Numbered from the stretch's first letter, positions 4,175 through 38,241 are shown. The stretch: DNA of 64,000 nt from an uncultured Acidobacteriota bacterium (GCA_963717945.1 CAVQXT010000007.1:1006808-1070807), one strand, 5' to 3'. Translations and numbers: made by a program. The notes: generated from the letters alone by a model not told the origin.

Positions 4175-4317
4175 CTGACAGAAGGTTGTTTTCTGGCAGA
4201 CATTGTTCCTCCCAACGAGGGCAAGAGGAGACTTTGCGTGAACGCGCTGGCCGGACTGGCGATCCCGTTGTCGAATCCCCGGTCGGGTCCGAGTTGTCCC
4301 GCGCGGAGCCGACTATG

Positions 4318-6192: not shown

Positions 6193-6381
6193 ACCCGCGG
6201 ACGACAGGTCAATGGCCCGGGGGCTCCGACATGGTGGCCGAGCGTGCCTGAGCGTCTGGAACGTCCTGCCCGGACCGTGAAACGCGCCGCGCTCGGGATC
6301 GCGCACGAGCTTTCGCTGGCCAGGCTGCGCGTCGAGGCCTGGCTCGCCGCATCCGGCAAGCGGCCGCGCCCCCCACGGATC

Positions 6382-7659: not shown

Positions 7660-8879
7660 GGATCGCCCTGCTCTCGTTCGAGTACCCGCCGGAGACCGGA
7701 TTCGGCGGCATCGGCACGTATACGTGGTACCACGCTCGCGCGCTGGTGAAGCTGGGCCACGAGGTGCACGTGCTGGCCGGCGCGCGCGCGCCGACCGCGC
7801 GCCGTTCCAGCGAGCACGACGGCGTCCGCGTGCACCGGTTCTGGGCGGATGGCGTGGCGATGGGCAGCTTCCACCGCCTGGGCGCCTTCAGGCTCTGGTG
7901 GACCCGGCAACGGCTGCAGAACGCGTGGAGCATGTATCGAGGCCTCTCGGCGCTGCACCGCGAGCACGGGTACGACGTGGTCGAGATGCCCGAATGCGGA
8001 GCCGAAGGCGCCCTGGTGACGCGCCTGCTGACGGTGCCCTCGGTCGTGCGGCTGCACTCGCCCGCGCGGCTCATCATGCGGTACTACGACGTGCGCCCGG
8101 CGGACATCCGGCTCTGCTCGGCGGTCGAGCGGCAGGCGGTCGCGCGCGCGACGGCGCTGACGGCGTGCTCGCGGTTCGTCGCCGGCGAGGCCAGGGCGAC
8201 GCTTGGCGTTCGGCGCGAGATCCGCTCCATCACGAACGGCCTCGATCTGGACTTCTTCGATGCGACGGCGGAGAGTTTCGACGCGTTCGACCGGTTCGAG
8301 CTGCCGCGGCGGCGCCTGTTGATCGTCTTCACCGGCCGGATGGAGCGCCGCAAGGGCGTCCACCTTCTTGCCGGCATCGCCTCGTCCATCCTCGAACGGT
8401 TCGACGTCACGTTCGCGCTCGCCGGCGACGATCTGTTCGGCTATGTGGCCGGGACGCTGCTGCCGGCGCTCGCCCCGCGGAAGCGGCAGGGGTCGGTACA
8501 CTGGCTCGGGGCGCTCGGCATGACGGAGGTGCGGCAACTGGTGCGCGCGGCGGACATCGTCCTGCTGCCGAGCCTCTGGGAGAACTGCCCGTATTCGTGT
8601 CTCGAGGCGATGGCCGCCGGCCGGGCCGTCGTCTGCGCCGATCAGGGCGGCATGCCCGAGTTGATCGAGGACGGCGTGAACGGATTGCGCGCGGCGCCGG
8701 GCGAGGTCGCGTCCTTCGTCCGGCGGGTCGAAGAGCTGATCGAAGATCCGGCACTCAGGGCGCGACTGGGACGCGCCGCGCGCGCGACGATCGAACAGCG
8801 GCACGGCGACACGCACGTCGCGCGCCAGGCGCTGGACGTCTACCACGGGCTCGTCGCGGGAAGGAGGTCGGCCGCGTGA
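7656..8879 (+). CDS. GT4-family glycosyltransferase
   Basis: In-frame GTG 7656 within ORF 7050..8879, overlapping the previous stop (GTGA). The protein reads VRIALLSFEYPPETGFGGIGTYTW ... SLWENCPYSCLEAMAAGRAVVCADQGGMPELI. Confidence 0.85.
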   Translation: MRIALLSFEYPPETGFGGIGTYTWYHARALVKLGHEVHVLAGARAPTARRSSEHDGVRVHRFWADGVAMGSFHRLGAFRLWWTRQRLQNAWSMYRGLSALHREHGYDVVEMPECGAEGALVTRLLTVPSVVRLHSPARLIMRYYDVRPADIRLCSAVERQAVARATALTACSRFVAGEARATLGVRREIRSITNGLDLDFFDATAESFDAFDRFELPRRRLLIVFTGRMERRKGVHLLAGIASSILERFDVTFALAGDDLFGYVAGTLLPALAPRKRQGSVHWLGALGMTEVRQLVRAADIVLLPSLWENCPYSCLEAMAAGRAVVCADQGGMPELIEDGVNGLRAAPGEVASFVRRVEELIEDPALRARLGRAARATIEQRHGDTHVARQALDVYHGLVAGRRSAA

Positions 8880-11533
8880 ACATTCCGGTGCTCTCGCGGG
8901 CCTGGACGGAGGTACGGACGCGACTCGCCCCTCGGGCCGGTCTGTCGCGGCCAGCCGTGCCGTTTCAGGTGATCGTGGGCGCGACGGCCTGGACGGTGAA
9001 CGGCGTGAACGTCTTCTCCGCCAATCTCGTCCGGGGCCTCGCCGCACGAGGCGTGTCGGCGCACATCTTGTTGACGGAGGACGCGACCGAGCTGGCGCAG
9101 ACGCACGAGCAGGCGATGCCCCGCCCGAACGGCGTCCGCTTCGAGTCGATCCCGGTCGGCCGCGCCGCGAACTGGGGCAGGCATTGGGGAGGCATGGTGC
9201 GGTATCTCGAGCAATCCGCCCCGTGCGTCTACGTGCCGAACAGCGACTGGCGCCATTCGCTCGTGTCGCCGCGGCTCGGCCACGACGTGGTCGTCGTGGG
9301 CATCGTCCACAGCGACGACCCGATGCACTACGATCACGTGCGCCGCGTCGGGCGCTCCTGGAATGCCGTCGTGGCGGTCAGCGACACGGTGGCGCGGAAG
9401 ACCGTTGAAACGTGCCCGGACCTCGCCGGTCGCATCACGACCATTCCGATCGGCGTCCGGATTCCGGCGTCGCGGCCGCCGCGGCCACCGGCGAGCGATC
9501 GTCTCCGGGTCATCTACCACGGCATCCTGAAGCAGCATCAGAAACGGGTGCTGGACCTACCCCGCATCGTCCGGGCGGCGCGCGATCTCGGCGTGCCGAT
9601 CGAGCTGACGATCGCCGGGGCCGGTCCGGACGAATCCACGCTCAGGCGGGCCGCCGAGCCGCTGGTCTCGGAGGGCGCCATCCGCTTCCTTGGCGTCGTG
9701 TCACACGATGACATGCCGGCCGTTCTCGAATCCCACGACGTCTACCTGCTCGCGTCGGAGTTCGAGGGCATGCCCAACGCGTTGATTGAGGCCATGGGGT
9801 GCGGGCTGGTCCCGGTCGTGTCCCGCACGACGAGCGGCATCCCCGAACTCGTTCGCGATGGCCGGAACGGCTTCGTGGTGCCGATCGGAGACGCGGGCGC
9901 GTACGCCGATCGTTTGCGTACGCTCTGGCGTCATCCCTTTCGGCGCAGGCGAATGGCCGCGCGAGCGTACCGGACGGTTTCGAAGGGCCACTTTGGCGTC
10001 GAGGACATGGTCACGTCCTATCTCGAGGTCTTCGATCGCGCGTGGGGCGACGCCAGTGCCGGGCGCTTCGTGCGACCGAGGGGTCCGCTCTCTCCGCTTC
10101 CCGCCGAGGTCGCCGGAGTGAGCGTGTTTCCGGTCGACACCCCGCACGTCGTGCCGGACCTGGGCGCGTTTCCGTCGCTCGAGGACGCGGAGGATTACGA
10201 CGACGAGATTCGGACGCTGGCGAGGAACGCCGCGCGGCGGCGTCTTGTCCCTTCCAGGCGTGCTCCGGCATCGCTCGAGGACGTTCGCGTGATCGTCGCG
10301 TCGCCGGTCTGGACGCACAACGGCGTCAACCTGTGGTCTGAGGAGCTGGTGCGGGGGCTTCGAGGCGCGCGGGTCGATGCCCGGGTCCTGCTGACGGAGG
10401 AATCGACCCGCCTGGTGACGATCGACGAGCCGAGGATGGCGAGGCCGGCGGACGTCCCGGTCGAAGAACTGCAGGTGGCCGGCGCCGACAACTGGGGCGC
10501 CCGATGGGGAGCGATGGTCCGCACCCTGGAAGCCGCCGCCCCCTGCATCTACATTCCGAATTACGACTGGCGGCACTCCTGCGTGGTGCCGGCGCTCTCG
10601 GGACGCGTCGCGGTCGTCGGTCTCCTGCACGACGACGGCCCTCTCTATGCCGAGCACGCCTCGCGGCTCGGCGATTACTGGAATGCCGTGGTCGCGACGA
10701 GCCGACAAACCGCGCGCCACCTCCGCCAGGTGTCGCCCCGGTTGAGCGATCGGATGTGCACGATTCCGCACGGCGTCCGTGTGCCGGCCGAACTCGGCGA
10801 GCGGGCATGGGGCGAGGCCGGCGGAACGCTCCTGATCCCGCCGGAGACGTGTGGCGGGAGCGTGCTGTCGTTCATCCGGGCGATCGTCGAGTCGGGCAGA
10901 GGCTGGTCGCTCGTCGCCGTCGATCCGCCCGAGGCCGATCGGGAGTGGCTGGCGGCGGCGGGCGTGCGCCTGGTGATCCGCCCGGGCCGGCTGGCATGGC
11001 TGGAGTTGTGCGCGTCGAGCCACGTTGTCGTCTCTGCGGGGGGTGACCCGGGGGCGAGGCCGCCAGTCGTCGAAGCGATGGCCCATGGATGCGTGCCCGT
11101 CACGGTTGGGTCCGCGTCGGGGGACACCACCGCGAGCAGACGCCTGCGCGACACCGGCATCACCGTTCCGGACGGCCGGTGGCACGACGCGGTTGGACGC
11201 CTGCAAGCACTGGGGCAGGATGCCGACAAGTGGAAGGAGATGGCGGCGGCCGCGCACCGCACGGCTCGCGAGATCGCGTTTGGCTCGGACCAGATGACCG
11301 CCGCGTATCTCGAGCTCTTCCGGCAGGTCATCGCGGACGCCAATTCCGGCTTCTTCGCGCGTCGCCGGGGAGCGGTGCTTCCGCCGCCGGCGGCGGTTGG
11401 CGGCACCAGCGTCTTCCCCGTTCCGTTGACGCACGCGACCGAGGGGGGCGCCTTCCCCTCGGCTGAGGACGAGGCCAGCTATCGGGCGGAGCTGGCCGGA
11501 GGCGGTGAACCTGCGGTTCTGGGACTCCCGTGA
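8876..11533 (+). CDS. Tandem-duplicated double GT4-like glycosyltransferase (~885 aa)
   Basis: GTG 8876 (GTGA overlap) within ORF 7724..11533. Two homologous ~430-aa modules. The first has SEFEGMPNALIEAMGCG (EX7E). The second has a degenerate motif (GGDPGARPPVVEAMAHG). Confidence 0.8.
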   Translation: MNIPVLSRAWTEVRTRLAPRAGLSRPAVPFQVIVGATAWTVNGVNVFSANLVRGLAARGVSAHILLTEDATELAQTHEQAMPRPNGVRFESIPVGRAANWGRHWGGMVRYLEQSAPCVYVPNSDWRHSLVSPRLGHDVVVVGIVHSDDPMHYDHVRRVGRSWNAVVAVSDTVARKTVETCPDLAGRITTIPIGVRIPASRPPRPPASDRLRVIYHGILKQHQKRVLDLPRIVRAARDLGVPIELTIAGAGPDESTLRRAAEPLVSEGAIRFLGVVSHDDMPAVLESHDVYLLASEFEGMPNALIEAMGCGLVPVVSRTTSGIPELVRDGRNGFVVPIGDAGAYADRLRTLWRHPFRRRRMAARAYRTVSKGHFGVEDMVTSYLEVFDRAWGDASAGRFVRPRGPLSPLPAEVAGVSVFPVDTPHVVPDLGAFPSLEDAEDYDDEIRTLARNAARRRLVPSRRAPASLEDVRVIVASPVWTHNGVNLWSEELVRGLRGARVDARVLLTEESTRLVTIDEPRMARPADVPVEELQVAGADNWGARWGAMVRTLEAAAPCIYIPNYDWRHSCVVPALSGRVAVVGLLHDDGPLYAEHASRLGDYWNAVVATSRQTARHLRQVSPRLSDRMCTIPHGVRVPAELGERAWGEAGGTLLIPPETCGGSVLSFIRAIVESGRGWSLVAVDPPEADREWLAAAGVRLVIRPGRLAWLELCASSHVVVSAGGDPGARPPVVEAMAHGCVPVTVGSASGDTTASRRLRDTGITVPDGRWHDAVGRLQALGQDADKWKEMAAAAHRTAREIAFGSDQMTAAYLELFRQVIADANSGFFARRRGAVLPPPAAVGGTSVFPVPLTHATEGGAFPSAEDEASYRAELAGGGEPAVLGLP

Positions 11534-11584: not shown

Positions 11585-12361
11585 GTGGCCGCGATCCGTC
11601 GGTACTGGTATCCGTCGCTGGCGCTCGCCCGGCGCGAGGTGCGGAAGCGGTACGCCTCGTCGGTGCTGGGCGTGGCGTGGACGGTTCTCCAGCCGCTCAT
11701 CCTCCTCGCCATCTACGTCTTCGTGTTCGGCTTCGTGCTCAGCGTCTCGCACCCCGCGGACGACGGCCGCGGGTTCGTGTTGTTCCTTCTGAGCGGCATG
11801 CTGCCGTATCTCGCGGCCGCCGATGGCATTCAGCGCGCCAGCCTGTCGCTGCGCGAAGACCGCGCGCTGGTCGAGCGCGACACGTTCCCCGCGCAGGTCA
11901 TTCCCGTCTCGAGGGTGCTCAGCGCGGCGGTGGGCGAAGTGGTGGGGCTCGGCCTGCTGATTGCGCTGGCGATCGCGTTCGGCAGACCCGTGAGCGTCTG
12001 GATTCTCGTCCTGCCGATCCTGGTCGTGCTCCGCGTGGTCATGACGTGCGGCATCGCGTGGATCGTCAGCATGCTGGCCGTCTTCGTCTCCGATCTGAAC
12101 GAGGCGCTCTCGCTGCTCCTGACGGCGTGGCTGTTCCTGACGCCGATCTTCTACCCCGAGGAGGCGGTGCCCCGGGTGCTTCGCTGGCTGCTGCTGGTCA
12201 ACCCGTTGCATCATGTCGTCCGCGCGTACCGGAGCGTGCTGCTCGAGGGGCGGGCGCCCGTGCCTGACGCGGGATACGTCGTGCTGTGGGCGGTCGGGCT
12301 GTCGGCGGTCGGCGCGTGGTTCTTCCGGAAGGCGCTGGACCGGGGAAAGGACTTTCTCTAA
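11585..12361 (+). CDS. wzm: ABC-2 type polysaccharide export permease (Wzm)
   Basis: ORF 11585..12361 reads LARREVRKRYASSVLGVAWTVLQPLILLAIYVFVFG, followed by six TM segments. Confidence 0.85.
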   Translation: MAAIRRYWYPSLALARREVRKRYASSVLGVAWTVLQPLILLAIYVFVFGFVLSVSHPADDGRGFVLFLLSGMLPYLAAADGIQRASLSLREDRALVERDTFPAQVIPVSRVLSAAVGEVVGLGLLIALAIAFGRPVSVWILVLPILVVLRVVMTCGIAWIVSMLAVFVSDLNEALSLLLTAWLFLTPIFYPEEAVPRVLRWLLLVNPLHHVVRAYRSVLLEGRAPVPDAGYVVLWAVGLSAVGAWFFRKALDRGKDFL

Positions 12362-12365
12362 ATCG

Positions 12366-13547
12366 ATGATCAGCATACGGGCGCAGGGACTCGGCAAGGC
12401 GTATCGCATTTACAAGCGGCCCTTCGACAGCTTGAAGGAACTGGTGCTCCGCCGCGAGTACTCCGAGACGTTCTGGGCGCTGCGCGACGTGTCGCTGGAA
12501 GTCGCCAGGGGCGGGTCGCTCGGCATCATCGGCGACAACGGCGCCGGCAAGTCCACGCTCCTCAAGCTGCTCGCCGGGGCGACGGCGCCGAGCGCGGGGC
12601 AGGCCGAGCGCAGCGGCCGGGTCTCGGCCATTCTCAGTCTCGGCGCGGGCTTCCACCCGGATCTGTCGGGCATCGAGAACATCCGGATCGGCTGCGCGAT
12701 TCTGGGGCTCTCGCCGGCAGAGACCGAGGTGCACCTGGCGGAGATCGTGGAGTTCTCCGAGCTGGGTTCGTTCGTGGAGCGCCCGGTGAGGACGTACTCC
12801 TCGGGCATGTACCTGCGGCTCGGCTTCTCGGTCGCCACCGCCGTGGCGCCACAGATTCTGATCGTTGACGAGCATCTCTCCGTCGGTGACCAGCACTTCA
12901 GACGCAAGTGCATGCGCCGCATCATGGCGTTGCGGGAGGCCGGCTGCACGCTCGTGTTCTGCTCGCACGACCTGCACGCGGTCCGGGAGGTGTGCGACCG
13001 CACGTTGTGGCTCCAGGCCGGCCGGCCGGCGATCCTGGCCGCCACGTCTTCGGCGATCGAAGCCTACCAGGATCACATCCGGGCCCGTGATGCGGAAGTC
13101 GAGGGGCCGGTCGGGAACCAGGAAGCGCCGCGCGACCACCCCGCGGACAACTACCTGACCGACGTGGCGCTTGGCGGCGACTGCCGGGACGGCCAGGTCG
13201 AGACAGGCGGAAAGCTCGAACTCCGGATTCTCGCGCGGCTGTCGCAAGCGGTATACCGCGACGGGGTCCACGTTGGATTGATCCTCGTCCGAAAGGACGC
13301 CGTCTGGTGCTATGGCGTCGCGACGAAGTGGGATGGCCTGTCTTCTGGATTGTACCCGAGGGGAGGCGATGACTATGGCGTGCGCTTCGTGGTGGATGCG
13401 CTGCCGTTACTGTCAGGTCAATACAGCTTTATCGTTGCGCTGATGGACGATCGCAGTCCGCACCTGTACGACACCTGGTCCAACGTCGCGGCCGTTCACG
13501 GTACAGCACGGCGGCAAGGAGGTCGGTGTCATGCGGATACCCCATAG
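12366..13547 (+). CDS. wzt: Polysaccharide ABC exporter ATPase (Wzt) with C-terminal glycan-binding domain; its true end is probably 13566 after a +1 frame break near 13494-13503
   Basis: ATG 12366 within ORF 12213..13547. Walker A GDNGAGKST, signature YSSGMYLRLGF, Walker B ILIVDE. The C-terminal ~150 aa are Wzt_C-like. See the finding for the frame break. Confidence 0.85.
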   Translation: MISIRAQGLGKAYRIYKRPFDSLKELVLRREYSETFWALRDVSLEVARGGSLGIIGDNGAGKSTLLKLLAGATAPSAGQAERSGRVSAILSLGAGFHPDLSGIENIRIGCAILGLSPAETEVHLAEIVEFSELGSFVERPVRTYSSGMYLRLGFSVATAVAPQILIVDEHLSVGDQHFRRKCMRRIMALREAGCTLVFCSHDLHAVREVCDRTLWLQAGRPAILAATSSAIEAYQDHIRARDAEVEGPVGNQEAPRDHPADNYLTDVALGGDCRDGQVETGGKLELRILARLSQAVYRDGVHVGLILVRKDAVWCYGVATKWDGLSSGLYPRGGDDYGVRFVVDALPLLSGQYSFIVALMDDRSPHLYDTWSNVAAVHGTARRQGGRCHADTP

Positions 13548-13562
13548 ATGGGATCGCCCGGA

Positions 13563-14738
13563 ATGACGTTCACACCTGGCGATGGAGGGTGTCGACCCTA
13601 TGACATCGTTATTGTCGGGACCGGCCCCGCCGGGTCGGCATTCGCCCGGTCAGTGAGGCGGGCAGCCCCGCACCTCCGGATCCTCGCGATTGAGGAGAAC
13701 CCCCATCCCAGAGACAAGGTCTGCGGCGGCGCGCTGACCTACCGTGCCTTGCCGCTCGTGCGGACGCTCTTTCCAGAGGTCGGCTCCATTCCCACGACGA
13801 GCTTCACCAGGGAGTATCGGCTCTGCTTCCCCAACGGTCGGAGCGTTGCTCGAGGCGACGGCGAGTTCGCCGTCGTCTGTCGGCGCGTGTTCGATGAGGC
13901 CCTGTGGAATGCGGCGCGATCGGATGGCGTGGAGACGCTCGAGGATGCTCGCGTCACCGGGCTGCTGCGGAGCGCCGGACGGGTCACCGGCGTCTGCGTG
14001 GAGCGGCGGTCGGCACGTTGGAACGTCGAGTGCAGGATGGTCGTGGGAGCGGACGGGTCGACGAGCGTCGTGCGACGGTGCACGGGGAGCGGACCATCAC
14101 GCAGCCGAGGAGCAGCCGTCCGACAGTTCATGCGTGGCGTCGAGCCGGCGGCCCGGGCACTTGTGTTCCTCGTCGATCCGGGGTGTCATGGGTATCTCTG
14201 GATCTTCCCCTTCGAGTCGGAGGGGGAGCGGTGGGCCAACGTCGGGTACTTCTGCCATACCGGGCGAGGCGTGGACCCTCGAGGGCGGTATGCGTCGATG
14301 CGGCAACATGCGGTTGCGAGACGATACTTGACTGGCGCGACCGAGGTCACGCCGCTGGAGGGCTTTCCTCTGAACCTGGCCCGAACGCACCGGGGCCGAC
14401 TTGTGCTCGATCGGCGGGTCACCGGCCCCGGGTACGTGCTCGTCGGCGACGCGGCAGGATTGGCGCATCCCGATACAGGCGAGGGAATCGCGTTTGCCTT
14501 GCACTCGGGGAGGATCGCCGGCGAGCTGGCGGCGGAGTCGCTCGACGCGGCCACGTGGGGACCGGCGTACGAACGTCTGGCTGTCCGATTCGCCCAGGAC
14601 GCAGATCCTACGGGGTTGCTGTCGTTCGTGTTCCGAGTCCCGGGCGCGTTGCCCCCCCTGGCCAGGGACTTGTATATGCGTCTGTTGCCATGGTGGCTGA
14701 ACAGGCGGCAAGGAGAGCGCGCGGCATGGCCAGCCTGA
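13563..14738 (+). CDS. FAD-dependent oxidoreductase, geranylgeranyl-reductase family
   Basis: ORF 13548..14738. YDIVIVGTGPAGSAF (dinucleotide fold) and RDKVCGGAL. Start is ATG 13548 or ATG 13563; the latter makes an ATGA overlap with the frame-corrected wzt stop. Confidence 0.75.
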   Translation: MTFTPGDGGCRPYDIVIVGTGPAGSAFARSVRRAAPHLRILAIEENPHPRDKVCGGALTYRALPLVRTLFPEVGSIPTTSFTREYRLCFPNGRSVARGDGEFAVVCRRVFDEALWNAARSDGVETLEDARVTGLLRSAGRVTGVCVERRSARWNVECRMVVGADGSTSVVRRCTGSGPSRSRGAAVRQFMRGVEPAARALVFLVDPGCHGYLWIFPFESEGERWANVGYFCHTGRGVDPRGRYASMRQHAVARRYLTGATEVTPLEGFPLNLARTHRGRLVLDRRVTGPGYVLVGDAAGLAHPDTGEGIAFALHSGRIAGELAAESLDAATWGPAYERLAVRFAQDADPTGLLSFVFRVPGALPPLARDLYMRLLPWWLNRRQGERAAWPA

Positions 14739-16340
14739 GCAAAGAGCTTATCGAAGAGTACAACCGGACCCGTGGCGAGGACGTCGATCGGAGCGTCCTC
14801 TGCCACGCGCCGTTCACGAGCATGAACTTCGAGCAGACGGGCAAGGCCAGCGCCTGCTGCTACAACAGGACCCACGTCTTCGGCGAGTATCCCAGGGACA
14901 GCGTCGAGCAGATGTGGTTCGGCGCGGCGGCGGAACAGCTCCGGAACGACATCCGCCAGGACAGTCTCGAGGGCGGCTGCAGCATGTGCAAGCGGCAGCT
15001 CGAGAGCGGCAACCTCGCCGGCTGCAAGGCCAGGATCTACGACCAGTACGCTCAGGGAACGCCGGAGCAGGGAAGCAGAGTCCTCACGTTGCCATCGCCC
15101 GCGCGGGCCGTTGCGATGCCCAGGGTGATGGAGTTCGAACTCGAGAATACCTGCAACCTCCAGTGCATCATGTGCGACGGGTTCTTTTCCTCGGCGATTC
15201 GCAGACACCGCGAGAAGCAACCGCCTCAGCACAGGCCGTACGACGCCGATTTCGTGAAGCAGCTCGCGGAGTTCATGCCGCATCTCGAGGAGATGAAGTT
15301 TCTCGGCGGCGAGCCGTTCATGATCGGGATCTACTACGACATCTGGGAGCAGGTGGCGCGCGTCAACCCCGGCGTGAAGATCCACATCACGACGAACGCG
15401 ACCACGCTCAACCCGCGCACGAAGACGCTGCTCGAGAAGATGAGGGGGGCGGGGTTGAGGTGTACCTTCTGCGTCTCGATCGACTCGGTGCGGAAGGAGA
15501 CCTACGAGGCGATCCGGGTTGGCGCCTGCTACGAACAGGTGATGGAGAACATCGCGTGGCTCTCGGACTACGCGATGAAGCGGAACGCCTCTCTCGGCTT
15601 CGCCGTCTGCCCGATGGCCATCAATCGGTTCGAGATGCCAGACCTCGTAAGGTTCGCGAGCGAGAGGGGCATCGTCGTGACCTACAACACGGTGCTGAAG
15701 CCGCCCGAGCAGGCGTTGCGCTTCCTGAACCATGAGGAACTCGATGAGCTGATCGCGAACTACGAGAGCCGCATGCCAACACACGGCTCACCGATCGGCA
15801 AGATCAACCTCGACTACTTCACGGGCTACGTGAACCAGGTGAGGGCGTGGAGGGACGAAATCGAGAAACCCAGTGATCAGATGGCCGAGCTCAGGCGCAT
15901 CGACCCGTCATCCCGCCCGCAGGCGCCGGAACTGACGCGGAAGATCCTGCTGGCCAGCATCATCGGAGCCGGCGGCCGGCGGGACCGGCTGCCGCCGGAC
16001 CCCGAACTGGACGGTGTGACGCCGGAAGACTTCCGGGGCTACCTCTGCGCGAAGCTCTCCGAGACTGCGCCGGAGCAGTTCTGGGACGCCTACCTCGCCT
16101 GCCTCGACTGGGTCGCTTCGGAATGCCTGCCGCCGGCCGAGTACCGAGGAGTTTCGGCGCAAGTGGGACGCGCTCCTGAAGATCGCGGTGGGCCTCGTCG
16201 CGAGCGCGAAACTCGCAATACTCTCAGACCTGCTCCGGGGCGATGTGGTCGCGCACCTGCGTTTCATTCTGGCCACGGACATCGCCGTCATCGTGGGGGG
16301 ACTTCATCGGTACGAGAAGTCACCCGCGTCTCACCCCTGA
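14726..16340 (+). CDS. Radical SAM enzyme with an N-terminal SPASM-like Cys cluster; apparent +1 frame break at ~16145
   Basis: ATG 14726 (RBS AGGAGAG) inside ORF 13904..16987. CNLQCIMC (CX3CX2C). The N-terminal region is LCHAPFTSMNFEQTGKASACCYN...GGCSMCKRQ. After 16145 the called frame turns R/G/P-rich, while the +1 frame gives EEFRRKWDALLKIAVGLVASAKLAILSDLL... and stops at 16338-16340. Confidence 0.75.
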
Positions 16341-16493
16341 TCAAACCCCGCACCGGCTACGGACCGCGCAGAACGCGACAGTTGCGTGCAGCCGGCCGGA
16401 CACGAGGGAGTGTAGTATCAGCAGCACGTCGAACGGGCCGGAACCGGACCACGCGTTCCGACCCGGTACCGTTCACGTCGAGGCGGCTGAGAT

Positions 16494-18665
16494 ATGAAGA
16501 CGGTCATCGTGACGCCAGAACTGGCCGGGCTTTGCCCTCAGGGGGGCATCGGGTCATTCGCCTGGCATCTGTCCCGGCTCCTGCGGTCGGTGGGGGAGGA
16601 GGTGACGGTTCTGCTCACGGGACGAGCCCGCCCCGCCCGGATGCGCTGGGCGGGTCGGTACGAAGGGGCGGGCATCGACGTGCGCACGGTCAGCCCGAGG
16701 GCCTTCCCTCCGAACACGATCGGGGCATGGGATTTCGTCGGTCGCGGACATGCCGTCGCGGATGCGATCCCGGGCGACGCCGATGTGGTCTATTTCCAGG
16801 ATTGGCTGGCAGACGGATTCGTTCCGGTTCGCATGAGGCGATTGCAGAGGAGGCGGCACCCTGTGTTCGTGAACGTCCTGCACAGTCCGACGGCCTGGAT
16901 CCGCGAGGCCATGGCCGAGTATCCGCGCCACGTGCTCCACGACATGAGCCTGGATTTCGCCGAGCGCTACGTCGCCGAGCACGTTGACTTCATTGCCTCG
17001 CCGAGTCAGTACATGCTCAGGTTCGTATCGGACCAGGGCTGGCAGTTGCCGGATTCGGATCGTACTGCGGTGCTTGGTTACCCGATTGTGCCGGACTCGA
17101 CGCCACCTGGTGCGCCCAGCTCGTCGCGACCGGGCGAGTTTCGCCGCATCGCGTTTCTCGGGAGATTCGAAGTCAGGAAGGGCACGGGGCTTTTCGTCGA
17201 TGCCCTGCGTCAGCTTCACCGCCGGCGGCCGGAGCTCCTGGACTCGATCGAGGAGATCGCCTTCGTCGGCCGGGAGGGAAACACCGGCGATCTCTCACCG
17301 CGACGCGCGGCGAACCGGCTGTCTTCGCTGCGCGCGCGGATTCGGTTCCTGAGCCGTCTGGACACAGAGGAGGTTCAGGCCCTCCTGCGATCCTGGGCAC
17401 ACGACACGCTGGTGGTGGTTCCCAGCCTCGACGACAACTACCCTTACGTCGTGATCGAAGCGTCGCTCGTTGCCGGCTTGCATGTCATCTGCTCGAACGC
17501 GGGCGGCATGCGCGAGATTCTCCTGCCCGCGGCCGGCGACCAGTTCTTCGACCCTTCCGAGCGGTCTCTCGGCGACGCTCTCGCGCGGTACCTGGCATCC
17601 GGTCCGCGTTCTCAGGCGGGACTGCATCCATATGACTGGAATCGCCACAACCGGGAGTGGCTCGATTTTCACGACCGGGTCCGGCGCGCCAGAGAGCCGC
17701 AACCGGGCGCCCTCGCCGTCTCCAGCAGGCCGACCCGGCACGTGGACGTCTGCATTCCCTTCTTCAATCACGGGGCATACCTGCCGGCGTTGCTCGAAGC
17801 GCTGGCGAACCAGACGCTGTCGGCGGGCTCGGTCACGGTGGTCGACGACGGTTCAACCGACGGTGAGTCGCAGCGCGTTCTTGCTGAGATGGGAAGCAAG
17901 TATGCCGACCGGAACTGGCGCTTCGAGGCCTCGGCGGTCAACAGGGGCGTCAGCGCCGCCAGGAACGCCGCGGCCTCGAAGGGGCATGCCGAGTACCTGC
18001 TGTTCCTCGACGCCGACAACGTGCCCGTTCCCCACATGGTCGAGCGGTTCCTGTCGGCCATCGAGGATTCCGGCGACGACTGCCTGACCTGCTACTTCCG
18101 TGCCTTCGAGGGCAGGCACGCTCCGTTCGAACGGGCCACCGAAGAGGCGGGGAAGTGCGCCATCCGCCAGGTCGTCCCCACCAGGTACGATTTCCTGCCT
18201 CTCGGACCGTGTCTCCCGCTCGGGCTCTTCGACAATTTCTTCGGAGACGCCAATTTCATCGTTCGACGATCGGTCTTCGAAGCCCTCGGAGGGTTCTCCG
18301 AGGAGCCCGAATACCGGTACGACACCCACGAGGATTACGAGTTCCTGCTGCGGCTCATCCTCGCGGGAAAGACCCTGGATGTGGTGCCGGAGGTCCTGTT
18401 CTTCTACCGAGTCACCGGGAGCGGCCTCATGGGGACGACGAGCGAGTACCGGAATCGCCTGCGCGTGCACCGGGCTTACGCCGCGCTCCTGCAGAACGCG
18501 GGCCTGCCCGGCCTCGTGCCGTACGTCTACGGCCTGTACGAGAGGGGCAAGCCGCTGGAGTTCCTGGTGGCTGAAGCGCGACGGGCGCTCCGTCATCCGC
18601 TCGCGGCCGCCGCGACGATCGGTCGGGCGGGGCTGCGGACCCTGTGGAAGCGGTTCGACGGCTGA
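16494..18665 (+). CDS. Bifunctional glycosyltransferase (N-terminal GT4/GT-B + C-terminal GT2/GT-A)
   Basis: ORF 16494..18665. The N-terminal half is GT-B-like. The C-terminal half reads VDVCIPFFNHGAYLPALLEALANQT...VVDDGSTDGES...LFLDADN (GT2 DxD). Confidence 0.8.
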   Translation: MKTVIVTPELAGLCPQGGIGSFAWHLSRLLRSVGEEVTVLLTGRARPARMRWAGRYEGAGIDVRTVSPRAFPPNTIGAWDFVGRGHAVADAIPGDADVVYFQDWLADGFVPVRMRRLQRRRHPVFVNVLHSPTAWIREAMAEYPRHVLHDMSLDFAERYVAEHVDFIASPSQYMLRFVSDQGWQLPDSDRTAVLGYPIVPDSTPPGAPSSSRPGEFRRIAFLGRFEVRKGTGLFVDALRQLHRRRPELLDSIEEIAFVGREGNTGDLSPRRAANRLSSLRARIRFLSRLDTEEVQALLRSWAHDTLVVVPSLDDNYPYVVIEASLVAGLHVICSNAGGMREILLPAAGDQFFDPSERSLGDALARYLASGPRSQAGLHPYDWNRHNREWLDFHDRVRRAREPQPGALAVSSRPTRHVDVCIPFFNHGAYLPALLEALANQTLSAGSVTVVDDGSTDGESQRVLAEMGSKYADRNWRFEASAVNRGVSAARNAAASKGHAEYLLFLDADNVPVPHMVERFLSAIEDSGDDCLTCYFRAFEGRHAPFERATEEAGKCAIRQVVPTRYDFLPLGPCLPLGLFDNFFGDANFIVRRSVFEALGGFSEEPEYRYDTHEDYEFLLRLILAGKTLDVVPEVLFFYRVTGSGLMGTTSEYRNRLRVHRAYAALLQNAGLPGLVPYVYGLYERGKPLEFLVAEARRALRHPLAAAATIGRAGLRTLWKRFDG

Positions 18666-18762: not shown

Positions 18763-19725
18763 GTGGTTCAGGAGTTCAAATCTCTGCCAAAGGACGGAGG
18801 GTCGAAAGCGCCGCGGTCGCCGACGGTGTCGGTCGTGATCCCGACGCTCAACGCCGAGCCCTTTCTGCGGGGCATTCTCGAGGCGGTCTTCACCCAGGAA
18901 CCGACGAGCCCGTCGGAAGTCGTCCTGGTGGACTCGATGTCCACCGACGCCACGCGGGACATCGCCGCCTCCGTGGCCCGCGTCCGGGTCGTCCCGATCT
19001 CCGACTTCTCGCACGGCCGCGCCCGGAACCTCGGCGCGCGCGCGGCGACGGGGGAGATCGTCGTCATGCTGACGCAGGACGCGATGCCGGCCGGCAGGAC
19101 GTGGCTCGCTGCGCTTCTCACCGCCTTCGCCGACCCGCAGGTCGTGGCGAGCTACTCGCGGCAGGTCCCGCGGGCCGACGCGAACCCGATGGAACGGTTC
19201 TTCCTCGAGCGGCGATTCCCGCCGCGCCCGCCGGTGCGACGAGCGCGGCGCGGCGACGGCCCGCTCACGCTGGAGGACGTGTTCTTCTCGAACGTCAGCG
19301 CCGCGATCCGCCGGGAGGCGCTGGTCTGTCATCCGTTCGACGAAGGGCTGATCATGAGCGAGGATCAGCAGTTCTCCCGGGACGTGATCGCGGCCGGGCA
19401 CGCGGTGGTCTACCAGCCGGAGTCGGTCGTGATCCACTCCCACGACTACTCGGCGGCCACGTGTTTCAGGCGCTACTTCGACAGCGCGTGCTCGCTCAAG
19501 GTGATCTTCCCGGAGCACGGGCTCGCAAGAACCGTGGCGATGGCCGCCAGCTACCTGCCCGACGAGGCCAGGTACATGGTGCGCGCGCATCCGCGGTCGC
19601 TCCCGAGGTACCTCCTCTATAATCTCGCGAAGGTCGGCGGCACCCTGGCCGGCCTCATGGGCGATCGGCTGCCGCGCCGGGCCGCCCGGGCCCTCAGCCT
19701 GCACCGGTACCACTGGGAGGAGTAG
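18763..19725 (+). CDS. GT2-family glycosyltransferase (rhamnosyltransferase-like)
   Basis: ORF 18763..19725 contains VSVVIPTLNAEPFLRGILEAV...VLVDSMSTDATRDIA...MLTQDAMP. Confidence 0.8.
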   Translation: MVQEFKSLPKDGGSKAPRSPTVSVVIPTLNAEPFLRGILEAVFTQEPTSPSEVVLVDSMSTDATRDIAASVARVRVVPISDFSHGRARNLGARAATGEIVVMLTQDAMPAGRTWLAALLTAFADPQVVASYSRQVPRADANPMERFFLERRFPPRPPVRRARRGDGPLTLEDVFFSNVSAAIRREALVCHPFDEGLIMSEDQQFSRDVIAAGHAVVYQPESVVIHSHDYSAATCFRRYFDSACSLKVIFPEHGLARTVAMAASYLPDEARYMVRAHPRSLPRYLLYNLAKVGGTLAGLMGDRLPRRAARALSLHRYHWEE

Positions 19726-19806: not shown

Positions 19807-20466
19807 TTATGCCGGCTGCCCGTCTTCGAGGGCTCCGCTCGACGGCGCGGCGTCGTCCGCCTCCCAGCGTTCGGGAGGCGCGGCGTCGTTCGCCGCCCAG
19901 CGTTCGGGAGGCACGGCGACGTTCCCGGTCGACAGGAGCCGGTCGTCGCTGATGCGCAACCGGTCGTGCTCGATCCGGTCCACGCCGAGCGCACTGATCG
20001 CCAGCTGGCCCGTGTCCAGGCGGAAGACCAGGCGCTTCTCGCGCAGGTACCACAGGTGGAACTCCACCATCTCGATCGGCATGCGGAGCAGGCGGGAGAT
20101 CTCGTACTCACCGAGGCCGGGCATCCGCATCTCGGTCCGGCGCTGCACGTAGAGCAGCGACAGGATCCGCTGCCTGGTGGCGGTGTCTTCGGCGAACGCG
20201 GTGCCGTGCGTCGCCTCCGATGCGAGCTTCCACTTGCGGTTCCAGTATTCCTGGTACTTCGCGTCGTAGCCGGCCCGCGTTTCGGGGTCGCCCAGGATCG
20301 CCCTGGCCCTGCTCAGCCGGCGGAACCTGGCTTCGTCGCTGGCTTCGCCGATGTCCGGGTGGCACTTCTTGGCCAGGTGGCGAAACACGCGGTCGATGGT
20401 GTCCTCGTCGGCGTTGGGGCTGAGCTGCAGAAGGTCGTAGTAGTCGACAAACGGTTCCTCGGTCAC
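19807..20466 (-). CDS. J-domain (DnaJ-like) protein with C-terminal winged-helix-like region
   Basis: ORF 19807..20466, GTG start. DYYDLLQLSPNADEDTIDRVFRHLAKKCHPDIG (HPD motif). A C-terminal 33-nt tandem duplication encodes PPERWAANDAA/PPERWEADDAA. Confidence 0.75.
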   Translation of the reverse strand: MTEEPFVDYYDLLQLSPNADEDTIDRVFRHLAKKCHPDIGEASDEARFRRLSRARAILGDPETRAGYDAKYQEYWNRKWKLASEATHGTAFAEDTATRQRILSLLYVQRRTEMRMPGLGEYEISRLLRMPIEMVEFHLWYLREKRLVFRLDTGQLAISALGVDRIEHDRLRISDDRLLSTGNVAVPPERWAANDAAPPERWEADDAAPSSGALEDGQPA

Positions 20467-20574
20467 ACGTCACTCCCTGGTTCGGGCGGAGCCCACTCAC
20501 CGCGCCGGCACGGTCCCACCCGTCAGAATGTATCGGCCGCTCGACACCACAGGGCCAGTCCCCCCCGATCAAGG

Positions 20575-20643
20575 CCCGTGGTATCCTCCCTTCCCGTGCG
20601 CACCGGCCGTCCGAATTCCCCCTGACGGTGGAGCGTCTTCGCC
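20575..20643 (+). pseudogene. Degenerate copy A of the yigZ promoter-proximal/5' coding segment
   Basis: Aligns with 23431-23526 and 27298-27392 (tatcctccc..cgtgcgca..tccgaattc..ctgac.gt.ga.cg) but carries indels. Confidence 0.5.
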
Positions 20644-20660
20644 ACGGGAGACCGCGCCCG

Positions 20661-21859
20661 ATGATCGACCCCGTCGAACGTGCCGCCCGCGAAATGCGCA
20701 ACCAGGCGAAAGTCGTGGCGGTGGTCATGTGGGCGGCGTTCGCGCTCAACTGGGCCGACCCCCACGCTTGTGGATCGCTATCTCGGGGGGCGTCAAAGGC
20801 GCTGACTTCGTTCAGTTCTACAGCCTGGCCACCGCGAGTCGGTTACATGACTTTGCCGCCCTCACATCGTCCCGTGAGCTGCACATCGTGCAGGCCAGGG
20901 CCGTCCCGCAGGCCGTCGGGGACAACTTCCCCGCAGTGTACCCACCGCAGGTCGGGCTTGCGCTCCAGCCGCTCGCGTTCTTCTCGTACCCGGTCGCCCT
21001 CGCACTGTGGACCCTGCTGACCTGGGCTCTTTACGGCACGGCTACCTGGCTTCTCTGGAGGTGCTGCCCGCGCCTGCGGCCGTACGGCCGGACAGTCGCG
21101 TGGGTGGCATGCGCATTCCCGGCGTTCTGGTGGCTCGTCACGACCGGCCATCTGTCTGCAGTGGCGTTGGGAGCGCTGGCGCTGGCCTGCCTTGCCCTGG
21201 ACCGGAAACGGTCCTGGCTGGCCGGGTGCGCCATCGGGTTGCTGGCATACAAATGGACGCTGCTGCTTCCGGCTGTCGCGGTTTGCCTCCTTGCCGGTGA
21301 ATTCACGATGCTGCTGGGCGCCGCGGCCGTCACCGCAGGCCAACTCGGCCTCGCGGTGCCGTTTGTCGGCCTGGACGGCGTCCGCCAGCACTTTGTCACG
21401 ATGTTCGACTTGAGTCGAACGCCGGATGTGCTGGCCGCCAAGCCATACATGATGTACTCGCTGCGTACCTTCTGGGCGACCCTCGTGCCTGACCGTCTCG
21501 CGGTCGTCCTGTATCTCGCCTCGGCGCTGTGCGTCTTGATCGTGGCCGCTCGCGCGTGGCGTCGAACTTCGTCAGCAACAGGCCGCGTCGGGCTCCTGGC
21601 CTGCGCGGTCGTGCTGGCGACGCCGCACTTGTTTGCGTACGACCTCGTGGTCCTCGTCCCGGCGATCCTGCTCGCGGCAGACACGGCCCTGGCGCTGCCA
21701 CGCGGAAGCGCCGCGAGGACGATGCTGACTCGAACGAACCATGCCGTGTTCTTCGTGATGTTGTTCAGCCTTGTGGCCGCGGTGGCGCGGATTCAACTCG
21801 CCACCCCGCTGCTATTCTTCTGGCTCGTTCTGCTCGCCCGTTCCGTCCGCCTCCGTTGA
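20661..21859 (+). CDS. DUF2029/GT87-like polyprenol-phosphate-dependent membrane glycosyltransferase; apparent -1 frame break at the C5 run 20759-20763
   Basis: ORF 20528..21859 carries the core (GADFVQFYSLA plus many TMs). The N-terminal TM segment MIDPVERAAREMRNQAKVVAVVMWAAFALNWADP lies in the frame of ORF 20628..21020. One extra C in the run would join ADP-PRLWIAISGGVKGADFVQFY. Confidence 0.65.
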
Positions 21860-23338
21860 CGCTGGGCCGACCGGCGTCGGTGCGGGCAAGGGAGGCCCGC
21901 CGGCCCCCGGCGCACGTTCCGGCTTCATGGAGAATCGGCGGATTTCAACCGGCGCGTCCTCGGCGCCGAGCCATATCCCCAGGCTTGCGCGGTCGTCGTC
22001 TTCTGCCGCGGCGAAGCTGAGGTCCATCACCGTCCACCGGTCCGTCAGCACCAGCTCCTCGCGCAATCCCAGCGAGTGCCAGGGCGCATGGTCCTGCCAC
22101 AGCCCCACCGCCACCCGGCGCAGGCGCTCCGCTCGAATCTCCAACTCCACTTGGTATCGACGGCAGGCGGAGACCGAACCACAGGGCCGCGTCAGGCGCA
22201 CGTCCCACGGCTGCCCCCCGGGCCGCGGGATCACCAAGCGGACGACGCCCGGGTTCCCCCGCTCGACACGGGCTTCGGCCCCATCGTCCAGGTGCAATTG
22301 CCCGCGGCAGATCAGCCAGATTCGAAGTTGTCCTGCAAACCGCCAGAGTTCACGCACCCGCCGCTGGTAATTGCCTTGAAAGAGCAGCACCTGAACCACC
22401 GGCAGGGGCGCGAGCGACGGAGAACGCCAGGCGCACTGCAGCGCCAGAATCAGCGGCAGGTAGCATTCGTAAAAGGGGTGGCTGAAGCGCCACCATTCGA
22501 TCGCGGCCGCCTCCCCCCGCTCGTGGACGTAGTAATTCCAATTGTGAGCGACCTTCGTCCGAACCATCGCGACGTACAGCGCGGCGCCGGCCGCCAGCAG
22601 TGGGCTCAGGCGAACCAGAGAGACCAGGAGCGCGAGGAACGCCGCCAGTTCGGCGGCGTAGACTCGATTCACCAGGATGCGGGTTCGGGACCGGCCCAGC
22701 CCGGTGGCCAGCGTCGAGACCCCCGCCTGCAAATCGCCGGCGCGGTCCTGGAATTCGTGGATGATGATTCCCTTGATGCCCAGACCGAGCGACCAGATCG
22801 CCCCGCATGCGGGAAACAGCCACCACCACGGGCCGGCGCCCGAGTGCGCCGTCCCGGCGCTGGCGAGCACCGAGATGGTGTAGAGGCAGGGCACGACGTG
22901 CGCTCCCAGGGTGTCGCACAGCACGCCGGCGACGCCGCGCTCCTTCAAGCGAAGTGGTGGAGCCGAATAAATCGTCGGCAGCAGATACTCGACGGCGAGC
23001 AAGCCGAGACTCAGCCGCGAATAGTGGAACAAGGCGGCGGGAGCGAAGCCCAGCGCCAGCGCCACCGCGCAGCCCGCGTATTTCTGCCAGGAGGGCAGCC
23101 GGCTGAGGGAGTTCTCCTTTCCCGTCCGACGGTCGGCCTCGATGTCGAACAGGTCATTGATGAGATGCCCGTAGGAACCCGCGCACAGCCCCACGAAGAG
23201 GATCAGGCCGATGCACCCCGCGGCAGCCGCCGGAGGAACATCGTACAGGAGCACCGAGGCGTAGCAGAAGGCGAGAACCGGCGGGATCTTGGAATCCCAC
23301 CAGTTGTCGGTCCGTGCTAACTCTCGCAGCGAGGGCAT
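21812..23338 (-). CDS. UbiA-family prenyltransferase fused to a C-terminal CBM-like beta domain
   Basis: ORF 21812..23458, with the likely start at ATG 23338 (MPSLRELARTDNWWDSKIPP). HLINDLFDIEADRRTGKEN (NDxxDxxxD). The C-terminal ~200 aa are soluble (GQPWDVRLTRP...YQVELEIRAE...VAVGLWQDH). It overlaps the convergent GT87 gene by 48 nt. Confidence 0.7.
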   Translation of the reverse strand: MPSLRELARTDNWWDSKIPPVLAFCYASVLLYDVPPAAAAGCIGLILFVGLCAGSYGHLINDLFDIEADRRTGKENSLSRLPSWQKYAGCAVALALGFAPAALFHYSRLSLGLLAVEYLLPTIYSAPPLRLKERGVAGVLCDTLGAHVVPCLYTISVLASAGTAHSGAGPWWWLFPACGAIWSLGLGIKGIIIHEFQDRAGDLQAGVSTLATGLGRSRTRILVNRVYAAELAAFLALLVSLVRLSPLLAAGAALYVAMVRTKVAHNWNYYVHERGEAAAIEWWRFSHPFYECYLPLILALQCAWRSPSLAPLPVVQVLLFQGNYQRRVRELWRFAGQLRIWLICRGQLHLDDGAEARVERGNPGVVRLVIPRPGGQPWDVRLTRPCGSVSACRRYQVELEIRAERLRRVAVGLWQDHAPWHSLGLREELVLTDRWTVMDLSFAAAEDDDRASLGIWLGAEDAPVEIRRFSMKPERAPGAGGPPLPAPTPVGPASTEADGTGEQNEPEE

Positions 23339-23716: not shown

Positions 23717-24142
23717 GTGATGGACCGCGGCCGCTCCTCGGGTGCCTCCGTGCCGTCGCGACGAACCGTGATTCGCGGCGCCTTCTGGCTGCTGGCCGCC
23801 GCGGCCGTGGGCGTCTTCGTCTCGATGACCACCCGCATCGAGAAGGCCGTCAAGCGGCCGCGACCACTCACCATTCCGCCCGGCAGCGGCGATGCGATCA
23901 CGTTCGTGGACGACGTCATCGTCTGCCGCGGGGACCGGAAGGTCCGGGTGTTCTCCGCCCGGTGCACCCATCTCGGCTGCCGGATCTCCCAGACCGCGGG
24001 TGGGCTGATCGCCTGCCCGTGCCACGGGTCGAAGTTCAGGCCCGACGGCAGCGTGGCCTCAGGCCCCGCGACGCGCCCGCTCGTGGAACTTGCGCACACC
24101 ATCGACCCGCGATCGGGAGCCCTGGTCGTTCATGTCTCCTGA
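23717..24142 (+). CDS. Rieske [2Fe-2S] protein with twin-arginine signal
   Basis: ORF 23717..24142. SRRTVIRGAFWLLAAAAV (Tat-like), CTHLGC and CPCHGS. Confidence 0.85.
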   Translation: MMDRGRSSGASVPSRRTVIRGAFWLLAAAAVGVFVSMTTRIEKAVKRPRPLTIPPGSGDAITFVDDVIVCRGDRKVRVFSARCTHLGCRISQTAGGLIACPCHGSKFRPDGSVASGPATRPLVELAHTIDPRSGALVVHVS

Positions 24143-29835: not shown

Positions 29836-32916
<3,081 letters not shown>

Positions 32917-32967
32917 AGCGGGGAAGCCATGTTACCATCGCCTCTCGAGTTCGCGCGAACAGGCCCC

Positions 32968-38193: not shown

Positions 38194-38241
38194 AGCAGTT
38201 ACGGGCACGGCCGATAAGATGGGTGGAGTGTTGGTCGGACT

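Follow-up and report, generated by a model that had tools for sequence, protein, structure and literature searches.

Candidate tailoring enzymes of an isoprenoid-modified glycan: a geranylgeranyl-reductase-like flavoenzyme and an N-terminal-twitch radical SAM protein in a Wzm/Wzt locus of an uncultured Acidobacteriota bacterium

What could a flavoenzyme of the geranylgeranyl reductase (GGR) type and a radical S-adenosylmethionine (SAM) enzyme be doing between the ABC-transporter gene wzt and the glycosyltransferase (GT) genes of a polysaccharide locus? This arrangement occurs in a stretch of 64,000 nucleotides from an uncultured, Acidobacteriota-like genome (GCA_963717945.1, CAVQXT010000007.1:1006808-1070807), the whole of which is called the window below. 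An earlier note, made from the sequence alone, had proposed that the flavoenzyme modifies a polyprenyl carrier or a prenylated anchor, and had described the radical SAM enzyme as permuted. The gene order was read correctly there, as wzm and wzt lie upstream of the pair, and a GT4::GT2 fusion and a GT2 gene lie downstream. The locus also encodes a protein that had gone unnoticed, a UbiA-family prenyltransferase with a C-terminal carbohydrate-binding module (CBM). The gene content of the cluster, with a GGR-type flavoenzyme, a radical SAM enzyme, a membrane prenyltransferase and an exporter, suggests a polysaccharide carrying an isoprenoid lipid. We propose that the flavoenzyme and the radical SAM protein tailor an isoprenoid-modified glycan that the Wzm/Wzt pathway makes, and give this reading a probability of about 0.4.

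Six-frame open reading frames (ORFs) of 79 genome loci around radical SAM genes with the same N-terminal twitch domain were searched with the window proteins. The negative control consisted of 80 loci (802 kb) around generic GGR genes, taken over from a metagenome scan with the alignment of the flavoenzyme subfamily that had yielded only generic GGRs (23-36% identity). UbiA genes of the window type were observed within 10 kb of the radical SAM gene in 43 of the 79 loci, and in 31 of the 47 loci whose 10-kb flanks are complete; the gap has a median of 2 kb. Eleven of the loci encode Wzt-like ATPases (E<1e-30), and seven have wzm. No matches to UbiA, wzt, wzm or the radical SAM protein were found in the control loci (0/80). 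Clustering of the neighbours revealed a recurrent locus type with one to seven radical SAM paralogs, UbiA, and a soluble GT-A-like protein with a DTD motif. Further genes of these loci encode GDSL/SGNH enzymes, PhyH dioxygenases, a methyltransferase, AsnB, GT8, GT2, GT4, a TPR protein of 940 amino acids (aa), and Wzm/Wzt.

The UbiA protein of the window scores 60.9 bits with PF01040 (cutoff 34.2) and retains both Asp-rich motifs, NDLFDIEADRR and DRAGD. Its C-terminal domain (aa 401-491) resembles the CBM of 1gui (CBM4; E 0.003). The nearest solved UbiA structure, the DGGGP synthase 6m31, is a weak match (E 0.002). P0241 is 100% identical to the window protein, and the clade as a whole consists of 480-500-aa proteins with UbiA and CBM_4_9 (PF02018) domains, many of them fused to GT4 and some to PF03407. 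In different genomes members of the clade are fused to a radical SAM protein, to a GT4 polymerase module or to GT-A. Three UbiA-CBM::GT4 fusions (P0245, P0247, P0248) are 48-63% identical to the UbiA of the window, and their GT4 domains are related to the first module of the double-GT4 protein encoded upstream of wzm (Table 1). Judged by sequence, such fusions tie UbiA to the enzymes of polymerisation by the Rosetta-stone principle. Fusions involving the radical SAM family are UbiA::twitch::radical SAM (P0418), radical SAM::CBM_4_9 (P0092) and radical SAM::CBM_4_9::GDSL (P0331).

In three independent loci the UbiA clade is found beside wzm and/or wzt. In L083 the order is UbiA::GT4-wzm-wzt-methyltransferase-flavoenzyme-acyltransferase-CBM/GDSL, where the flavoenzyme homolog is 55% identical to that of the window. 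In L174 it is prenyl-diphosphate synthase-x-PhyH-UbiA-wzm-wzt-PhyH-GTs. In L175 it is GT4-GT4-prenyl-diphosphate synthase-radical SAM-radical SAM-sulfotransferase-UbiA::GT4-wzt, and both radical SAM proteins are 39-40% identical to that of the window. The synthases of L174 and L175 are of the trans type (PF00348) with an IspA/GGPPS-like DDLPCMDD motif, which points to a prenyl-diphosphate donor and not to undecaprenyl phosphate (Und-P). The flavoenzyme and the radical SAM protein each separately track the UbiA clade, and UbiA is the hub partner of both.

The radical SAM protein has a Pfam SPASM match at aa 26-89, upstream of the Radical_SAM match at aa 141-295; the core CNLQCIMC does indeed follow an N-terminal Cys-rich segment, and the term permuted was apt. 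The Cys residues invariant across 29 homologs are C26, C44, C45, C85, C88, C143/C147/C150 and the extra C295, and the N-terminal ones form the pattern C26-x12-G-x4-C44C45 ... C85-x2-C88. The full SPASM pattern (CX9-15GX4C ... CX2CX5CX3C ... C) is ruled out, as only CX12GX4C and CX2C are present. Positions 24-88 of the family profile align to the C-terminal twitch of BtrN, residues 169-237 (E 2.5e-4), and by these sequence comparisons the N-terminal domain is a single-cluster, BtrN-like twitch. The resemblance of the segment to SPASM or twitch domains claimed in the earlier note is therefore real as regards an auxiliary-cluster domain, but the domain is the twitch with one cluster and not a full SPASM. 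The AlphaFold model (mean predicted local distance difference test score, pLDDT, 87) has a beta-hairpin at aa 32-42, between C26 and C44, and a partial TIM barrel. It also contains the helical extension of about 200 aa that had been described, as helices at aa 336-527 with pLDDT of about 80-95. In Foldseek searches the whole model gave superfamily-level core matches only (BlsE at the top, then SkfB, viperin, SuiB, MoaA, anSME and DesII), none of them diagnostic. The C-terminal helical domain, modelled separately (pLDDT 88), had no fold match in the PDB (best E 1.7).

The ninth invariant Cys, at aa 295 (VCPM; ~15608-15610), lies outside all cluster motifs. Radical SAM epimerases use Cys as the hydrogen-atom donor, and by analogy Cys295 is a candidate for such a donor.

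The protein belongs to the NCBIfam family NF033640, "twitch domain-containing radical SAM protein" (N_Twi_rSAM), with 173.9 bits against a cutoff of 170 over aa 24-388. The permuted architecture had been presented as unique, which was an overstatement: it is catalogued and common. A word-indexed search yielded 588 relatives; when 1.84 billion cluster representatives were searched exhaustively, 1,014 clusters (at 50% identity) matched with E<1e-30. They come from Bacteroidota (especially Chitinophagales), Acidobacteriota, Planctomycetota, Gemmatimonadota and others. In the literature searched, no paper was found on NF033640 or N-terminal-twitch radical SAM proteins.

Five loci from Bacteroidota and other sources (L002, L023, L024, L037, L055) contain three to seven tandem paralogs of this family, and several of them also encode a B12-binding radical SAM protein, multiple PhyH dioxygenases and GDSL enzymes. 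Two proteins, P0313 and P0341, are tandem fusions of two radical SAM units. The tandem genes, together with AsnB, TPR and ABC genes, prompted a reading of the multi-paralog loci as maturases of ribosomally synthesised and post-translationally modified peptides. This was set aside because the loci carry GT8/GT2/GT4, an NDP-sugar epimerase, Wzt-like ATPases and CBM fusions.

The flavoenzyme has the GGR hallmarks ascribed to it, GTGPAG, PRDKVCGG and YLWIFP. The positions G24-x-G26-P-x-G29, C59 and Y216-x-W218-x-F220-P221 are invariant across its subfamily. The start at 13563 given in the earlier note is the second Met of the ORF (13548-14738) and agrees with the ortholog P0121. The nearest solved structure is the Thermoplasma DGGGPL reductase 3oz2 (E 2e-16). 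The score with PF22578 (GGR_cat) is 15.2 against a cutoff of 27, and in the NCBIfam profile search no GGR equivalog model was approached. Members of this tight subfamily score 262-849 bits, and generic GGRs come next at only about 142 bits. Fusions to PF04240, a family of CruF-like carotenoid-end hydratases, were seen in several members, and in L085-L087 the flavoenzyme, PF04240 and UbiA occur together, the UbiA being from a different clade. Judged from the fusions and neighbours, the substrate is likely, but not certain, to be an isoprenoid.

The radical SAM gene starts with the ATG at 14726, preceded by AAGGAGAG, and overlaps the flavoenzyme stop codon (TGA 14736-14738). The overlap of 13 nt makes translational coupling of the two genes probable. 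In the syntenic locus L001 a spacer of about 128 nt separates the flavoenzyme and radical SAM genes (9862-9989), without a counterpart in the window (14713-14740).

In the proposed pathway UbiA would transfer a prenyl group, probably of about C15-C20, to the glycan while this is nascent or lipid-linked; the group would be a primer or anchor or else a terminal cap, and the CBM of UbiA would hold the glycan for the transfer. The flavoenzyme would then saturate one or more of the prenyl double bonds, in the same way as GGRs act after the UbiA-type DGGGP synthase in archaeal lipid synthesis. The 5'-deoxyadenosyl radical of the radical SAM enzyme would take a hydrogen atom from the same prenyl-glycan intermediate, with the BtrN-like auxiliary cluster as the electron sink; the target could be the sugar or the prenyl chain. 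CBM fusions and the similarity to BtrN, BlsE and DesII favour the sugar. The UbiA::radical SAM fusion and an archaeal precedent, the radical SAM chemistry of Tes and GrsA/B on GGR-saturated chains, leave the prenyl chain as a possible target. Wzt, with its Wzt_C-like domain, would export the product.

Several observations weigh against this reading. The GGR and radical SAM pair is not conserved and is confined to near-identical Acidobacteriota relatives, because among the 79 loci the flavoenzyme was seen only in L004; a lack of conserved co-occurrence was one of the results that, according to the earlier note itself, would refute its proposal. Profile searches place the radical SAM protein above the threshold of its family, but the flavoenzyme narrowly misses that of the "geranylgeranyl reductase family" TIGR02032 (153.3 against 158.8 bits), and among PDB entries the halogenase 8zop is nearly as close to it as the GGR. 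Of seven more distant contexts of the flavoenzyme, three (L168, L170, L171) contain no UbiA gene, the neighbours being methyltransferase, acyltransferase, GDSL or sulfotransferase genes; therefore a non-isoprenoid substituent could be the target of the flavoenzyme. The radical SAM::CBM fusions and the similarity to BtrN, BlsE and DesII are at least as compatible with a sugar as with a prenyl substrate. A prenyl-diphosphate synthase was searched for in the window and not found. The reading frame of the radical SAM gene is broken in the window. Finally, for NF033640, the UbiA clade and the GGR subfamily all steps past family assignment are guilt by association.

The break in the radical SAM gene needs a closer description, as the earlier note had silently bridged it and treated 14726-16340 as a single ORF. 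This region is not one reading frame. Frame 2 is free of stop codons from 14726 until 16987. Past approximately 16145, however, its translation becomes Arg-rich and the GC content of third codon positions (GC3) collapses, and frame 0 takes over both GC3 and homology. The frame-0 translation, EFRRKWDALLKIAV...SPASHP*, ends at the stop 16338-16340 and matches the C-terminus of P0002; the shift falls 64 codons ahead of this stop. The homologs P0001-P0003 (85-87% identity, 536-538 aa) are uninterrupted across the shift point, and the window gene lacks the uninterrupted ORF of ~510-540 aa expected for NF033640. Alignment to the DNA of L001 reveals a lone inserted G at 16146: L001 has GAGTACC-AGGAG where the window has GAGTACCGAGGAG (GAGTACC[G]AGGAG). 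A second public contig, L173, which is 98.9% identical to the window over 13.8 kb, has the same insertion. L173 is from the same European Nucleotide Archive (ENA) sample as L001, and both insertion-bearing contigs have Flye-style names. The alignment of L173 and the window contains 16 gaps in 13.8 kb, and several gene calls of L173 are fragmented; therefore indel errors are frequent, and a long-read artefact is a live possibility. From these comparisons the inserted G may be either an assembly indel error or the mark of a recent pseudogene or strain-level loss of the radical SAM step. A programmed frameshift was ruled out, as the gene is in frame in the relatives L001 (93% identical) and L004 (88% identical).

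If the insertion is real, the radical SAM gene is dead in this strain, its product is a read-through of 753 aa that lacks the native C-terminal 64 residues, and of the pair the flavoenzyme alone is still functional. We consider this somewhat unlikely. The insertion is present in two assemblies differing at 1.1% of positions, and the public gene call of L173 is a read-through of 715 aa that shortens the downstream GT call; both favour this explanation. However, the contig names, the sample shared with L001, and the gaps and fragmented calls just described speak against it; the intact relative has CCAGG at the site, a Dcm-type motif prone to systematic long-read errors, and neither GC3 nor amino-acid conservation is degraded downstream of the shift. 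In another explanation the radical SAM protein would be a carbohydrate-modifying dehydrogenase, epimerase or deoxygenase similar to BtrN, DesII, BlsE or NeoN, making an unusual sugar in the repeat unit or a non-reducing-end cap read by the C-terminal domain of Wzt; the flavoenzyme would be its redox partner or an unrelated oxidoreductase of a glycan substituent, and UbiA a mere neighbour. The alignment of the twitch domain to BtrN, the sugar-nucleoside decarboxylase BlsE as the top Foldseek match with DesII also matched, the known radical SAM::CBM_4_9 fusions and the possible hydrogen donor Cys295 all agree with it, as do the flavoenzyme contexts without UbiA. So does the position directly after wzt, where loci of the E. 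coli O8/O9a type have their chain terminators and where L083 has a methyltransferase beside the flavoenzyme. On the other hand, it leaves unexplained the UbiA::radical SAM fusion P0418, the 54-66% co-occurrence with UbiA compared to none in the controls, the prenyl-diphosphate synthases beside radical SAM genes, and both the retained GGR catalytic motifs and the CruF-like fusions of the flavoenzyme. We regard this explanation as unlikely.

Two further explanations assign the isoprenoid or the UbiA protein another role. One possibility, part of the original proposal, is that the flavoenzyme remodels the polyprenyl-phosphate carrier, yielding a partly saturated, dolichol-like carrier dedicated to the pathway or to the polyprenyl-phosphate-sugar donors of the GT87 and PMT_2 enzymes. 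GGR paralogs saturate archaeal dolichol-type carriers, and MenJ, which saturates one isoprene unit of menaquinone, is the second-best NCBIfam match of the flavoenzyme (72 bits); moreover, the cluster encodes two GT-C enzymes that need lipid-linked donors. However, a cis-prenyltransferase was never seen beside the flavoenzyme subfamily or the radical SAM family, and the prenyl enzymes that recur instead, a UbiA transferase and PF00348 synthases of the trans type, speak for a transferred prenyl group and not for the Und-P carrier. Of the two isoprenoid roles put forward originally, the prenylated anchor is partly supported by UbiA-CBM and by the trans-prenyl-diphosphate synthases of related clusters, whereas the carrier is improbable. 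A conventional polyprenyl-phosphate-sugar synthase could supply the GT-C enzymes. The nearest published concept is the three-component system for extracytoplasmic pentofuranose addition, in which a UbiA-superfamily enzyme occurs in ABC-transporter-type glycan loci (Kelly et al. 2024, PMC11127046). In a variant of it, UbiA would make polyprenyl-phosphate-ribofuranose from phosphoribosyl pyrophosphate (PRPP), GT87 or PMT_2 would transfer the pentose in the periplasm, and the flavoenzyme and the radical SAM protein would replace DprE1/DprE2 or an SDR epimerase, diversifying the pentose. With these systems (PMC11127046), and with mycobacterial decaprenyl-phosphoryl-arabinose synthesis (Rv3806c as UbiA, DprE1/E2), the window shares a UbiA-family enzyme, GT-C enzymes, CBMs, Wzm/Wzt and auxiliary redox enzymes in one locus, and the published systems have auxiliary epimerases including the FAD enzyme DprE1. 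The auxiliaries in the window, however, are of the GGR and radical SAM types and not SDR or DprE, and its UbiA is not PPPRS-like. The PPPRS/DPPRS identity is ruled out by a score of 24 bits with NF006088 (cutoff 351), a model of the HAD::UbiA fusion type, and no decaprenyl-phosphate phosphoribosyltransferase model or structure was matched. Searches of the window found neither a HAD phosphatase nor a MATE or SMR flippase, and no phosphoglycosyl transferase, so of the GT136-type set of PPPRS-type UbiA, MATE flippase and GT-C only the last is represented, by GT87 and PMT_2. The relatives of the UbiA protein, with their cytoplasmic GT4, CBM or radical SAM fusions and neighbouring prenyl-diphosphate synthases, fit a prenyl-donor and not a PRPP reaction. 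This variant is highly improbable.

The proposal of prenyl tailoring has partial parallels in known systems. The window radical SAM protein shares with NF033640 the N-terminal twitch, the CX3CX2C core and the family-typical length; however, the window copy is frameshifted, and the UbiA/CBM/Wzm/Wzt context was in no paper found. With BtrN, the 2-deoxy-scyllo-inosamine dehydrogenase of butirosin synthesis and the prototype of twitch radical SAM enzymes, it shares the pattern of a single auxiliary [4Fe-4S] site (C-x17-C ... C-x2-C), and BtrN acts on a carbohydrate-like substrate. Unlike BtrN, where the twitch follows the barrel, the window protein has the twitch before the barrel and an extra all-alpha C-terminal domain of 200 aa, and the core similarity is at the superfamily level only. 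The flavoenzyme shares with the GGR family (3oz2, ChlP/BchP, MenJ) the FAD Rossmann fold, the catalytic Cys in K-x-C-G-G and YxWxFP, and the combination of UbiA and flavoenzyme parallels archaeal lipid logic, where the UbiA transferase precedes the GGR. It differs from known GGRs in forming a distinct bacterial subfamily, below the cutoff of TIGR02032 and far under the equivalog cutoffs, in glycan loci or with CruF-like fusions. Another comparison system is the E. coli O8/O9a-type Wzm/Wzt O-antigen pathway, with the multi-GT4 polymerase WbdA, the terminator WbdD and the carbohydrate-binding domain of Wzt. The window resembles it in its polymerase-like double-GT4 protein, in its smaller GT4s, in wzm-wzt genes that include a Wzt_C-like domain, and in modifying genes directly after wzt. 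It does not have the kinase/methyltransferase terminator, and the flavoenzyme, the radical SAM protein and UbiA-CBM stand in place of the known capping enzymes. The earlier claim that no characterised Wzm/Wzt pathway uses such enzymes agrees with our literature searches (N-terminal twitch/SPASM; UbiA with radical SAM, GGR or Wzt), which found nothing on the system and one conceptually close paper (PMC11127046).

Taken alone, the window is only moderately surprising, because both proteins belong to catalogued families, their pairing is restricted to one lineage and one of the genes is frameshifted. A wider reading concerns bacteria of several phyla, among them Acidobacteriota, Bacteroidota, Planctomycetota and Gemmatimonadota. 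In these bacteria ABC-transporter-exported polysaccharides may be covalently prenylated by UbiA-CBM, with the N-terminal-twitch radical SAM family performing a radical step on the prenyl-sugar unit and with GGR-type reductases, PhyH dioxygenases and SGNH enzymes tailoring it further. This we hold to be a tentative and rather unlikely extension. If true, glycans with an isoprenoid anchor or cap would form a class not recognised before. The proposed pathway itself, if correct, would give a large uncharacterised radical SAM family its first functional context. It would also add UbiA-type prenyl transfer to ABC-transporter-dependent glycan assembly, distinct from the PRPP-using UbiA of arabinan and pentofuranose pathways, and the archaeal-lipid logic of UbiA followed by GGR would operate on a surface glycan of bacteria. 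The system is directly testable, since orthologous clusters that are intact (L001, L004) and variants that are compact (L083, L174, L175) exist for expression.

The features of the locus are listed in Table 1. It is a single glycan locus of 4.5-23.4 kb, mainly on the plus strand, with the domains of a Wzm/Wzt pathway: PF01061, PF00005, a borderline Wzt_C, and GT4s and GT2s. The top named matches of the Wzt protein are TagH and galactan Wzt. The nearest genome is L004, an uncultured Acidobacteriota metagenome-assembled genome, whose radical SAM protein has 88% amino-acid identity to that of the window; L001 is syntenic with the window at 93% nucleotide identity. The GC content of the window is ~70% and dips to 65-67% at 12-18 kb (0.65-0.67 against ~0.70 in the flanks), and the first-position GC of the radical SAM gene is unusually low (0.58). 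The dip at 12000-18000 and the low first-position GC hint at horizontal acquisition of the tailoring genes.

Table 1. Coordinates of features of the glycan locus, counted from the first nucleotide of the window
Feature	Position	Strand	Basis or remark
PMT_2 GT-C	4531-6192	+	head of operon; syntenic in L001
GT4	6193-7659	+	head of operon; syntenic in L001
GT4	7665-8879	+	head of operon; syntenic in L001
double-GT4 glycosyltransferase, putative polymerase	8882-11533	+	N-terminal module 45% identical to GT4 of UbiA-CBM fusions P0245/P0247/P0248
wzm (ABC-2 permease)	11585-12361	+	PF01061 E 2.7e-18
wzt (ABC ATPase, C-terminal Wzt_C-like domain)	12366-13547	+	ABC_tran (PF00005); Wzt_C 29.9 vs 30.4 bits cutoff, borderline
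GGR-family FAD flavoenzyme, 396 aa	13548-14738	+	motifs, TIGR02032, 3oz2; alternative start 13563
N-terminal-twitch radical SAM gene, first 473 codons (frame 2)	14726-16145	+	NF033640, Pfam SPASM, Radical_SAM
twitch auxiliary-cluster domain, aa 26-89 (C26, C44/C45, C85, C88)	14801-14992	+	invariant Cys; BtrN twitch profile match; AlphaFold beta-hairpin
CX3CX2C motif CNLQCIMC, aa 143-150	15152-15175	+	invariant C143, C147, C150
inserted G shifting the radical SAM frame	16146	+	alignment to L001
radical SAM C-terminal 63 codons and stop (frame 0)	16147-16340	+	end of all-alpha extension beginning near 15731; matches P0002 C-terminus
GT4::GT2 fusion glycosyltransferase	16494-18665	+	domain search
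GT2 glycosyltransferase	18763-19725	+	domain search
DnaJ-domain gene	19807-20466	-	embedded in glycan locus
GT87 (GT-C) membrane glycosyltransferase	20528-21859	+	PF09594 E 8e-19
UbiA-family prenyltransferase, C-terminal CBM4-like domain	21812-23338	-	PF01040 E 1.5e-16

Near the C-terminus of the DnaJ-domain protein a short peptide is repeated in tandem (PPERWAANDAA / PPERWEADDAA). Genes of sigma-54-dependent activators flank the region at 2846-4312 (minus strand) and 38218-39576 (plus strand), one of them directly upstream of the glycan operon. At 23717-27011 (plus strand) a Rieske gene is followed by a gene encoding a protein of 1,001 aa with cytochrome b N-terminal domains and multihaem cytochrome c3/c7-like domains, an unusual bc-type fusion. 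A protein of 1,030 aa encoded at 29836-32931 (minus strand) combines an APH-type phosphotransferase, a peptidase M23 domain and a class-III aminotransferase.

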